This document shows positions 12,728-44,489 of a DNA stretch of 64,000 bases, piece by piece. Made by a program: the position numbers and the translations under genes. The stretch covers positions 45,286-109,285 of the forward strand of contig CBDCYT010000006.1 of NCBI GenBank assembly GCA_965224325.1, read 5' to 3'. The stretch comes from Dehalococcoidia bacterium. GTDB taxonomy: Bacteria; Chloroflexota; Dehalococcoidia; Lucifugimonadales; UBA3495. Positions within the stretch are counted from its first letter, which is position 1. Every line of letters begins with the position of its first letter. A model generated the notes under the pieces. The model saw only the letters and a program-made list of their open reading frames with translations, was not told the origin of the DNA and ran no database searches.

Positions 12728-13049
12728 TGCCTTCTCCTTCGTGTTTTAGTTCTGATGGTTACCTGGGTTGTTTATAGAGGACTTGGTGAAGCCCAGACAG
12801 AGGATAGGATATCCGACCAAGAATCACCCTGATGGCCCGGTGGGGTATCCTTGTACAAAGCGCGGTAAGACGGACAAACGGATGGCCAATCGCTCAGCGG
12901 ACAACTAGGTAGGGTTGGCCGTCACCGGTGCGGCGGCCCGGCGCGCCTGAATGCCTCAGCGGCCTACATCTCCAACTTAGGTGTCCGGCGGGTTTCCTGA
13001 CATTATATGGCGTTGGGATGCGTCGTCAATGCCCGTCGGCGGGCCCCGC

Positions 13050-13544
13050 GGGGCCTTTTCGTTTTCTGGGTTGGCTCGCATAGTTCCCGTCATTCCCGCG
13101 ACAGCCGTCATTCCAGCGCCTTCCGTCATTCCCGCGGAAGCGGGAATCCAGAGACCTTTGCGACAGGAAGGCTGGCATTGGACGGACAACCTTAGATTCC
13201 CGCTTTCGCGGGAATGACGGTAGGTGGGAACGACGGGACGGGGGAATGACGGAAGGTGGGAATGACGGTAGGTGGGAACGACGGGAGGGGGGAATGACGG
13301 AAGGCGGGCATGACGGGAGGGGGGGAACGACGGAAGGCTGGAATGACGGGAGCGGGGAACGACGGAAGGCAGGAACGACGGAAGGCAGGAACGACGGAAG
13401 GCAGGAATGACGGAACGCAGGAATAACAGAAGGCAGGAATGACGGGTAAGGCGGGAACGACGGAAGGCAGGAATGACGGAGGGCGGGAACGACGGAAGCT
13501 GGGAATGGCGGAAGGTGGGAATGACGGAAGAATCACCGGGCCCT
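13050..13544 (+). mobile_element. type II mosaic MITE-like element, copy a
   Basis: Flanked by an exact 12-bp direct repeat GGCGGGCCCCGC (13038-13049 and 13545-13556); same architecture as 43958-44244. Confidence 0.65.
13210..13530. repeat. ~20 tandem copies of a 16-nt unit (GGGAAYGACGGRAGGY)
   Basis: Read directly; the unit is the GGGAATGACGG half-site of the hairpin module. Confidence 0.85.
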
Positions 13545-13952
13545 GGCGGGCCCCGCCATCCATGAGCGTTCGTCGACAAGAAGCTTGCGCCTCCCAAGGG
13601 ATAATTGCTCCTTGACCGCCTACTATAGGGCCACTAAAATCGATTATAACCATCGAGATTCTTTTTGGACTTCGTCCAAGATGGCCGCGTTAACGGTGCC
13701 GTCGGGCTACCGGAATCGACATGGCCATCGAGGTCCTTTCTGTCGCTAGGACCCACTCGGAGTGGAGTTGGGGACTTTTTGGATGCAATCCGGGCTGAGG
13801 CCCGAGGGGCTAGACCTTCGTAATGAGGCGAACGGCATATAAAGACCCTCAACCGGCCGGTGGGGGACTTGAGTGCTCCTCCGTGCTCCGGCAATCTGGT
13901 GGTATGCGGTTACTGGCCGACTTGGATCTAAGCTTGAAGGAGGGATACACCA

Positions 13953-33850: not shown

Positions 33851-34039
33851 GCCATTTAGTTATCGCGACGACTCCTGTTTTCCCATGCACTTTGGGCTTG
33901 TCCAATGGCAGTGCAACATCAAGAACGCATGGATTCCCGCTTTCGCTGGAATGACGGGTGAGCCGCGGGAAAGGCGGGTGAGCGGTGGGCATGACGGGTG
34001 AGCGGCGGGTATGACCGGCGGCACACAATTAACACACCC
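33851..34039 (+). repeat. type III mosaic element, copy a
   Basis: Shares GCCMTTTAGTTATYGCGACGACTCCTGTTTTCCCATGCACTTTGGGYTTGTCCAATGGCAGTSCAACATCAAGAACGYATGGATTCCCGCTTTCGC... and ...GGCGGCACACAATTAAMACACCC with 34977-35385. Confidence 0.75.
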
Positions 34040-34976: not shown

Positions 34977-35385
34977 GCCCTTTAGTTATTGCGACGACTC
35001 CTGTTTTCCCATGCACTTTGGGTTTGTCCAATGGCAGTCCAACATCAAGAACGTATGGATTCCCGCTTTCGCGGGAAAGACGGGGGAGCGGCGGGATGGA
35101 TTCCCGCTCCCCGGTCGGGGCCGGGGACAAGCTTCACGGGAATGACGGGTGAGCGGCGGTATGGATCCCCGCTCCCCGATCGGGGCCGGGGACAAGCTTC
35201 GCGGGAAAGACGGGTGAGCGGCGGGATGGATTCCCGCTCCCTGATCGGGGCCGGGGACAAGCTTCGCGGGAAAGACGGGTGAGCGGCGGGATGGATTTTC
35301 GCTCTCTAATCGGGGCCGGGGACAAGCTTCGCGGGAAAGACGGGTGAGCGGCGGGTATGACGGGCGGCACACAATTAAAACACCC
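34977..35385 (+). repeat. type III mosaic element, copy b
   Basis: Same arms as 33851-34039 but with an expanded hairpin-module array. Confidence 0.75.
35098..35357 (+). repeat. 4 tandem copies (~64-nt period) of the long hairpin module plus linker
   Basis: GGATTCCCGCTCCCCGATCGGGGCCGGGGACAAGCTTCGCGGGAAAGACGGGTGAGCGGCGGGAT repeated with starts near 35098, 35163, 35227 and 35293. Confidence 0.85.
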
Positions 35386-42425: not shown

Positions 42426-42497
42426 CTTAAATCCGGTCTCCTTAGATGCAGTCCCAAGGGGCTTAAATGGGGTCTCCTTAAATTCAATCCCAAGGGG
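42426..42497. repeat. 2 tandem 36-nt units (CTTAAATSSGGTCTCCTTARATKCARTCCCAAGGGG)
   Basis: Read directly in the intergenic region just upstream of the LLM start at 42389. Confidence 0.8.
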
Positions 42498-43493: not shown

Positions 43494-43957
43494 AGGTGTC
43501 CACCCCCTTCTGTTGGAGATTGGAACGCCGGCGCATCGGGCCGGGACCTTCAGACCAAAAGCCTCGCACCGCGCGGGGCTGCGTTTCCAGCCTGGCCCCG
43601 CACAGGGCTAACATTCTGTCGTGTTCAGTTGTAATTCGTCGGGTTGCCTTCGGAACAGATGAGCAGCGCGGCCCCAAGTTGGCTGCCCTGCCAATAATCA
43701 ACACCAGCTAGAAGGAGAAGCGGGCTTCCCTCTGCCGGTCGCCGAATCAACGCGTGTCCCTGATTTTGGACCCAACTTAGCAAGACGCTGTCACCGGAAG
43801 GCGTCCTTTACGATGTTCTTCAGGTGTTTTTCGCGGGTGGTTACTCAACAATCCCGATAACAACGCTGTGGATATCGACGTTTGGGCCGCTAGGACGCTA
43901 TGATGGCGCATTATACTCGGGTCAAATTACCCGGGCAACTTGACGTATAGCTGTGGC

Positions 43958-44244
43958 AGGGCCTTTTCATTTTTGGGCTGGCTCGCATAGTTCCCTTCTC
44001 CGGGTTGACTCGCATGGTTGCCGTCTCTGGTTTGGCTCGCATGGTTCCCGTCATTCCCGCGAAAGCGGGAATCCACTACGCCCTGCCATATGACAAACTC
44101 CCGGGGCAAGGCGGTATGGATTCCCGCTTTCGCGGGAATGACGGAAGGCGAGAACGACGGAAGGCGGGAATGACGGAAGCGCGGGAATGACGGAAGCGCG
44201 GGAATGACGGAGGGCGGGAATGGAGGAGGAATGAAAAAGCCCTG
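43958..44244 (+). mobile_element. type II mosaic MITE-like element, copy b
   Basis: 10/11 direct repeat at the ends (ATAGCTGTGGC 43947-43957; ATAGCTGTAGC 44245-44255). Terminal inverted repeat AGGGCCTTTTCATT / AATGAAAAAGCCCT (13/14). Contains 3 x 27-nt units, two opposed hairpin modules and about 6 x 16-nt units (44134-44232). Confidence 0.7.
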
Positions 44245-44489
44245 ATAGCTGTAGCGCCCGCCGCATCCAGAAATATCGCCGGCCGCCAGCCCCACGAAAG
44301 CAAGAGTCCAAAAAGCCGGCCCATGGGTTTCCATCCTCGCGCTTCGCGGGACGAATTTATCGAGCACCCGCATATGCGCATGATTATGCGTATGCTCCGT
44401 CCGGGTTGCTGTTTTTGAGTGATATACTCGTCTCTGGAACGTCCCGTTTATTCGTTACAAATCTACGGAGAGACAGGAGAGCAACGGAA

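Follow-up and report, generated by a model that had tools for sequence, protein, structure and literature searches.

A 64,000-nt stretch of the draft genome of a Dehalococcoidia bacterium (hereafter the window) holds two copies, a and b, of a short repeat termed the type II element. The window corresponds to C6:45286-109285 (contig and position) of a 3.76-Mb, 21-contig genome with 59% G+C, and positions given without a contig count from its first letter. Both loci are probably copies of a non-autonomous transposon, a miniature inverted-repeat transposable element (MITE), derived from an insertion sequence (IS) of the ISAs1 family. The element carries as cargo the NTS hairpin targets of Ssn nucleases, next to a tandem array of 16-nt units that changes in place. 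A MITE had been proposed in a first-pass annotation of the same DNA, and the proposal is borne out by 15-16-bp inverted repeats, 10-bp target duplications, about 35-40 genomic copies and ends shared with an ISAs1 remnant.

Boundaries and architecture of the type II element

The two loci lie in the same orientation and have a common architecture, as the first-pass annotation had described and as was found again from the sequence and with Tandem Repeats Finder. The latter also bore out the 27-nt box counts given there, with one in copy a and 2.9 copies in copy b. The loci were correctly placed, but their exact ends have been moved to 13049-13545 (copy a) and 43957-44244 (copy b), so that the two copies comprise the following features.

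Copy a
13039..13048, unstranded: left target-site duplication GCGGGCCCCG, identical to the 10-mer at 13546-13555
13049..13545, plus strand: complete type II element, 497 bp, family consensus CA...TG
13049..13066, plus strand: left terminal inverted repeat CGGGGCCTTTTCGTTTTC, CA changed to CG, 2 mismatches to the 40-nt terminus-plus-box consensus
13067..13089, plus strand: single 27-nt-type box (TGGGTTGGCTCGCATAGTTCCCG)
13087..13136, plus strand: short array of NTS first halves, period 18, 2.8 copies (Tandem Repeats Finder), ending in the forward hairpin
13124..13151, plus strand: forward NTS hairpin CGTCATTCCCGCGGAAGCGGGAATCCAG, 1 mismatch to the NTS consensus CGTCATTCCCGCGMAVGCGGGAATCYRG
13152..13192, unstranded: spacer module SP2, a 44-nt module present at about 19 genomic places
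13193..13220, minus strand: inverted NTS hairpin
13208..13530, minus strand: array of 20 units of 16 nt, minus-strand reading CTTC+CGTCATTCCCGC (Tandem Repeats Finder, 20.0 copies)
13530..13545, minus strand: decayed right terminal inverted repeat GAATCACCGGGCCCTG
13546..13555, unstranded: right target-site duplication GCGGGCCCCG, 10/10

Copy b
43947..43956, unstranded: left target-site duplication ATAGCTGTGG, 9/10 to 44245-44254, with the same flanks in five other assemblies
43957..44244, plus strand: complete type II element, 288 bp
43975..44052, plus strand: 27-nt box, 2.9 copies (Tandem Repeats Finder)
44049..44076, plus strand: forward NTS hairpin CGTCATTCCCGCGAAAGCGGGAATCCAC, 1 mismatch to the NTS consensus
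44077..44116, unstranded: spacer module SP1 in its minority orientation, both orientations occurring among paralogous copies
44117..44142, minus strand: inverted NTS hairpin
44132..44222, minus strand: array of 6 units of 16-17 nt, NTS first halves (Tandem Repeats Finder, 5.6 copies)
44226..44244, minus strand: right terminal inverted repeat GGAATGAAAAAGCCCTG, 14/15 to the left repeat
44245..44254, unstranded: right target-site duplication ATAGCTGTAG

The corrected boundaries come from a family-wide alignment of all termini, in which the element ends were found to be CA-GGGCCTTTTCATT...AATGAAAAGGCCC-TG. Since the terminal CA...TG belongs to the element, the target-site duplication is 10 bp; the duplications of 11-12 bp proposed earlier had been read from 12- and 11-bp repeats that took in terminal bases of the element itself. 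With the new ends, the inverted terminal repeat reported for copy b remains and improves from 13/14 to 14/15. In copy a, the left CA has mutated to CG and the right inverted repeat is decayed (9/15). Beyond the terminus, the left arm continues with TTCTGGGTTGGCTCGCATGGTTCCC, and the right arm contains copies of CTTCCGTCATTCCCGC.

A genome-wide survey, which had been suggested as a check, yielded about 35-40 copies, of which 34 could be paired into elements of 89-593 bp. Their interiors draw on a limited set of modules: the box in one to four copies, a short or long form of the hairpin, a spacer (SP1 or SP2) in either orientation, the inverted hairpin and 0-20 of the 16-nt units. The spacers of the window copies differ, being SP2 in copy a and SP1 in copy b. 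The terminal inverted repeat CAGGGCCTTTTCATT stands at both ends and is found at 79 genomic sites with at most 1 mismatch. As the first-pass annotation had held, the flanking repeats are not chance matches: 10-bp flanks agree with at most 1 mismatch in 13 of 33 elements, compared with 0.1% of mismatched left/right flank pairings, and about two thirds of the elements show a duplication if 9-12 bp are allowed. The elements are small, non-coding and mostly intergenic, and open reading frames drawn across them are translations of the repeats only.

The interior is strongly structured. The window has nine occurrences of the hairpin ATTCCCGC-N4-GCGGGAAT, where shuffling predicts none, and copy b folded as single-stranded DNA reaches -74.1 kcal/mol (z = -5.9 against shuffles). 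A search of Rfam returned nothing near gathering scores, the only matches being generic long-hairpin ones to microRNA models. Elsewhere in the genome, two type II elements stand in tandem (C20:342954-343400) with a common duplication, CTCGCCTGTA, that occurs three times; either a second insertion into the same target or a duplication of the element with its target would give this arrangement.

Lineage specificity and a probable ISAs1-type mobiliser

The 40-nt terminus-plus-box sequence is present 35 times in the genome and absent from 120 other genomes of the family, including one of the same genus, and an exact 37-mer was not found in a collection of 185,000 species representatives. Given 35 copies here and none in relatives, the distribution therefore points to a lineage-specific burst of an ISAs1-derived MITE. 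The terminal 15-mers alone (at most 1 mismatch) reach further, with 79 sites in this genome versus 6 in the same-genus genome, where the two exact ones are solo sites next to unrelated content.

The ISAs1 assignment rests on transposase remnants that bear the same ends. At C7:509752, next to an exact terminal 15-mer, the opposite strand encodes a transposase C-terminus that has its stop codon within the repeat; this 90-aa fragment matches the NCBIfam profile NF033564 (transpos_ISAs1) at positions 262-313 with E = 8.7e-17. Further ISAs1 remnants were located at C5:5180-5894 (713 bp, with both ends) and, as a fragment, near 31 kb on C5, and the search of the whole genome for transposases gave three fragments in total. 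ISAs1-type elements of two related genomes (L021 and L023) have CAGGG(C/T)CTTTCG ends and 9-10-bp duplications. CAGGG termini and duplications of 8-10 bp are traits of the ISAs1 family recorded in ISfinder.

Two further observations concern these ends. An IS3-family element (orfA/orfB) breaks up the best ISAs1 remnant and continues as far as the end of the contig (C7:509752-511269), and insertion sequences are probably under-assembled in this draft genome. In addition, a second family of about 135 bp has CAGGGCCTTTTCATT ends around an unrelated, hairpin-free interior (C3:96281-96415, C21:24670-24804, C20:129971-130100 and near C6:42996), with no clear target duplication in the two copies checked.

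We infer that the transposase acted in trans. A DDE transposase supplied from elsewhere would have recognised the 15-16-bp inverted ends and inserted the element by a 10-bp staggered cut; the family would then have burst to some 35-40 copies in the species lineage, after which the transposase genes decayed; the tested insertions are fixed today. Like ISAs1 insertion sequences and the MITEs derived from them, the element starts with CAGGG, is flanked by duplications of about 10 bp, has a remnant partner matching NF033564 and is small, non-coding and multi-copy. Unlike IS-derived MITEs, its interior is a nuclease-target hairpin cassette with two variable-number repeats and not a deleted transposase gene; nor was an intact partner or insertion polymorphism between strains found here.

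Nuclease-target cargo and half-site arrays

The first description of Ssn nucleases and of their hairpins is as recent as 2025 (Nat Commun). NTS, with the 28-nt consensus CGTCATTCCCGCGMAVGCGGGAATCYRG, is the target of Ssn GIY-YIG single-strand nucleases, among them SsnA, a 94-aa GIY-YIG protein that cuts single-stranded DNA only, 3 nt upstream of NTS; the residues mutated in SsnA were Y6, Y17 and E64. The first half of the site is cut when paired in trans with the second half, extensions of the loop are tolerated, and the cytosine after the palindrome was found to be the binding determinant (PMC11893778). Judged by its sequence, the interior hairpin of the type II element is this published motif. 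The window copies each carry 1 mismatch to the consensus, and the genome contains 84 exact and 146 one-mismatch sites.

The genome also encodes three 95-aa single-domain GIY-YIG paralogs (ssn1, ssn2 and ssn3), which are putative members of the Ssn family (cd10448). A Pfam GIY-YIG match covers residues 5-77 of the ssn product (E = 3.7e-14), and at least 7,967 homologs of about 95 aa were retrieved, the named ones coming from Chloroflexota. Tyr7, Tyr18 and Glu65 of ssn1 and ssn2 stand at a uniform offset of +1 from the residues mutated in SsnA, ssn3 has Y18C, and pN/pS between ssn1 and ssn2 is 0.24. None of the solved structures matched the Ssn protein. The first-pass annotation had looked to a RAYT/TnpA-REP-like protein as the partner of the hairpins; no Y1 transposase was found in the genome, and the associated family turned out to be Ssn GIY-YIG, with its three paralogs.

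The link between genes and elements lies in their layout. Each ssn gene has a forward NTS-type hairpin upstream and, directly after the stop codon, an inverted hairpin followed by a GGGAATGACGG-type half-site array; the MITE interior repeats this layout, with a 40-45-nt spacer replacing the gene. In a comparison by eye, with no alignment run, SP1 and SP2 showed no similarity to ssn flanks that would mark the spacers as gene remnants. Furthermore, ssn2 is found at C12:243092-244229 within a unit of 1138 bp that has a type II end on its left and, on the other side, an end of the related type III; the unit contains an intact GIY-YIG gene, half-site arrays and five 65-nt hairpin repeats. Its 10-bp target duplication agrees at 9/10 positions (TCCTGGCAGG / TCCTGGCAAG). 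Enclosed between transposon ends with a duplication, the nuclease gene is thus carried along by a non-autonomous transposon. Similarly, ssn3 is located between two type III ends.

Several neighbouring observations were made on these genes. Type III elements with the ends CAGGGYCTTTAGTT... and ...AATTAAAACACCCTG also occur in the window, at 33851-34039 and 34977-35385; their left and right arms are common to the ssn3-carrying element, and the DNA between resembles the region upstream of ssn3. As ssn3 lies inside type III ends, these gene-less elements therefore look like derivatives of the ssn3 element. In ssn3 (C17:171138-171356), Cys has replaced the second catalytic Tyr (GTLCIG), as it has in a near-identical gene of a related metagenome contig (L225), and comparison of ssn3 with ssn2 gives 4 non-synonymous and 0 synonymous changes; from these substitutions, ssn3 may be an inactive, binding-only copy. 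Around ssn1, about 15 kb (C20:52000-67100) are dense in NTS hairpins, SP2-type spacers and dozens of half-site arrays. The presence of ssn was also considered as the cause of NTS abundance and was rejected, as it explains nothing alone: a homolog is present in all of five family genomes, and their NTS sites range from 0 to 178.

The 16-nt unit had been described as a reiterated half-site of the hairpin, which is right and can be made more precise, the repeated part being the 5' (nuclease-cut) half of NTS. On the strand of the hairpin, the unit reads CTTC+CGTCATTCCCGC, in which four bases of flank precede the part of NTS that extends from its first base through the end of the left stem arm. Across the genome there are 112 arrays of at least 3 units (704 units in all, with periods mostly of 16 or 17); 71 of the 112 adjoin a full hairpin and 34 adjoin the right transposon end. 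The asymmetry is pronounced, with 76 arrays of the first, cut-side half versus 1 of the second half. It extends to other bacteria: of 80 loci spread over many phyla, Neisseria lactamica among them, 59 have half-site arrays that end 3' in a full hairpin.

Units diverge by 2.65/16 within arrays compared with 4.0/16 between arrays, adjacent units are identical in 19% of cases versus 1% of random pairs, and the array of copy a contains local block duplications of 3 units and of 1 unit. Array growth is therefore local. Many of the arrays from other phyla (L123-L202) have a period mostly of 18 and contain a 5-8-nt linker equal to the sequence just upstream of the first unit; each such array therefore arose by duplication of the local flank together with the first half of the hairpin. 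Two arrays of 17-nt units, one of 37 (C16:120556-121174) and one of 32 (C7:369020-369557), are the longest of the half-site type in the genome, and both lack a type II right end.

Strain variation and competing explanations

Conspecific contigs were retrieved through exact-protein matches for three loci, with flanks at 97-99% nucleotide identity and no other large indels. They differ in unit number at both orthologous window loci, in agreement with the variable-number tandem repeat claimed in the first-pass annotation.

Copy a, window: 497 bp, 20 units
Copy a, L226: 492 bp, about 18 units
Copy a, L227: 408 bp, 14 units
Copy a, L228: 547 bp, 20 or more units
Copy b, window: 288 bp, 6 units, no other change
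Copy b, L231: 284 bp, 6 units, no other change
Copy b, L232: 271 bp, 5 units, spacer exactly inverted (exact reverse complement)
Copy b, L233: 204 bp, 5 units, forward hairpin and spacer deleted between ATTCCCGC direct repeats
Copy b, L234: 304 bp, 7 units, no other change
Copy b, L235: 271 bp, 5 units, no other change

In copy a, the two hairpin-proximal and the eight distal units are conserved across assemblies. The sites are occupied in all assemblies retrieved, and the insertions are thus older than the divergence of the strains, while the interior is still changing.

These data can be joined into one scheme for the interior. The cargo is probably an Ssn-system cassette composed of a forward NTS hairpin, a spacer and an inverted NTS hairpin, with tandem copies of the 5' half preceding each hairpin on its own strand. 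The 16-nt array is a minisatellite of the 5' (cut-side) half-site that grows and shrinks in place as 1-3 units are duplicated or lost locally. NTS is palindromic, and the two hairpins are therefore repeats of each other in direct as well as inverted orientation; when they exchange, or when the template is switched from one to the other, the spacer would be inverted, a hairpin deleted with its spacer, and modules shuffled between element families. For the growth of the array, we infer, with less confidence than for the trans-acting transposase, a role of Ssn nicking as the driver: a nick a few bases 5' of the hairpin would start duplication of a half-site. The unit begins 4 nt ahead of CGTC and includes the left stem arm to its end. 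Tentatively, a nick followed by displacement synthesis up to the hairpin and religation of the hairpin-protected flap might yield exactly such units. More speculatively, the arrays may be products and scars of nicking by Ssn, a nuclease-driven, one-directional minisatellite, and in this lineage DDE-transposon ends may have become the means of distributing Ssn targets, and an ssn gene too, in a partnership of which neither member is mobile alone here; this wider view is held with considerable doubt.

A number of observations weigh against the origin and mechanism proposed above. An intact ISAs1 transposase with these ends was found neither in the assembly nor in the relatives searched; the best match for an ISAs1 partner was a 55% remnant in the same-genus genome and 62% among 150 genomes of the order. 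No empty site was seen either: at three loci (copy a, copy b and a young-looking copy, C1:208572) every conspecific assembly retrieved carries the insertion, for the last of them a 99% relative. Mobility therefore rests on the target duplications, the inverted repeats and the absence from relatives. In relatives' genomes the flanking genes have 67-77% identity, without synteny for copy a, so that orthologous sites were not alignable, and when metagenomes were scanned with the adjacent aldo-keto reductase, the relatives recovered were all at 70-73% and likewise lacked synteny. About one third of the paired elements have no recognisable target duplication, which fits age or recombination between copies, neither of them proven. 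Between strains, units change in the interior of the array and not at its hairpin-proximal end, and for these interior changes ordinary slippage is as good an explanation as nuclease nicking. The published Ssn cuts single-stranded DNA only (PMC11893778), and the cut position for the host's enzyme is assumed by analogy. Finally, some of the compared assemblies are low-coverage long-read contigs (6-8x), in which individual odd units may be sequencing errors.

This last point raises the question of whether the strain differences, from unit number to the spacer inversion and the 67-bp deletion, are artefacts of assembling repeats. Several of the compared contigs have 6-14x coverage, L228 shows irregular units typical of long-read errors, and short-read contigs break at the elements. 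An artefact is nevertheless very improbable, given that the same unit numbers turn up in samples independent of one another (5 in L232, L233 and L235, and 6 in both L231 and the window), that the inversion is an exact reverse complement with intact flanks, that the deletion breakpoints are clean and fall at ATTCCCGC direct repeats, and that the flanks align at 97-99% with no other indels. The arrays could also be ordinary replication-slippage minisatellites with no part for Ssn, the hairpin doing nothing beyond stalling replication. Gain or loss of 1-2 interior units, often between identical neighbours, local homogenisation of units and higher-order block duplications are all what slippage would give. 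It leaves unexplained that the 5' half alone multiplies, that arrays adjoin a full hairpin on its 5' side in many phyla, and that the unit ends at the junction of left arm and loop and starts a few bases upstream, where published enzymes cut; slippage as the whole account is rather unlikely.

An array serving as a functional platform would put the half-sites to use, either by binding Ssn or another protein (as a sponge or regulator) or by offering alternative cut sites that pair with the single second half. Cutting of the first half in trans-pairing and the tolerance of loop extensions (PMC11893778) would suit such a role, as would the wide occurrence of arrays. The half-sites, however, lack the cytosine that determines binding, units decay, paralogous copies have anywhere between 0 and 20 of them, strains differ in their number, and no sign of selection on array length was seen, which makes the platform improbable. 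Least credible is a reading of the elements as mosaics of the REP/BIME kind that a Y1 (RAYT) transposase, or Ssn itself, has spread, with the inverted ends and flanking repeats incidental. The interior does resemble a REP doublet, with two inverted hairpins around a spacer, and the Ssn paper itself draws the analogy to RAYT and REP (PMC11893778). Against this, the element ends are identical to those of the ISAs1 remnant, the 10-bp duplications are far above chance, and the hairpin-free 135-bp family bears the same ends. Moreover, PF01797 gave no match in the 96%-complete genome and matched in 6 of 14 control genomes, a null result on which the RAYT/REP explanation was ruled out.

Viewed as a MITE with an NTS cassette, the element invites comparison with other repeat systems. 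Pneumococcal BOX elements (boxA-(boxB)n-boxC) are likewise modular, dispersed, non-coding repeats that fold strongly and contain internal tandem units in variable number. Their units, of about 45 bp, are to our knowledge not half-sites of a known nuclease target, and BOX elements are not known to have identified IS ends or a clear 10-bp target duplication. Neisseria intergenic mosaic elements (dRS3 + RS) and the BIMEs of E. coli (REP) similarly combine palindromes and variable spacers into mosaics in which recombination at palindromes shuffles modules, and the Neisseria mosaics have the palindrome core ATTCCC...GGGAAT (dRS3/NTS) in common with the present element. We know of no transposon ends or target duplications in either of these. 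BIMEs depend on RAYT, unlike the elements described here, in whose genome the PF01797 search found none. Also close is the NTS/Ssn system itself, with a matching 28-nt consensus, ssn genes flanked by inverted NTS and a 95-aa GIY-YIG protein. It differs in host, Chloroflexota being absent from the text of the Ssn paper, and in that the hairpins here are carried inside transposon-ended elements; nor does the word "tandem" occur in that text, in contrast to the tandem cut-side half arrays reported above (PMC11893778).

The elements thus provide one concrete route of spread, in which hairpins, and once a nuclease gene, lie between ISAs1-type ends that leave 10-bp duplications. The hairpin cassette is a hot spot of structural change among strains that are 97-99% identical, through gain and loss of units, inversion of the spacer and deletion of a hairpin. 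Because only the cut half multiplies and the unit spans from a few bases upstream to the top of the left arm, the idea that nuclease nicking drives repeat expansion becomes directly testable. In practical terms, the arrays are ready-made strain markers and also breakpoints of short-read assemblies. A separate repeat in the window, a 36-bp tandem duplication at 42426-42497 just upstream of a luciferase-like oxidoreductase gene, is a place where several alignments of conspecific contigs break and overlap, which suggests that its copy number also varies between strains.

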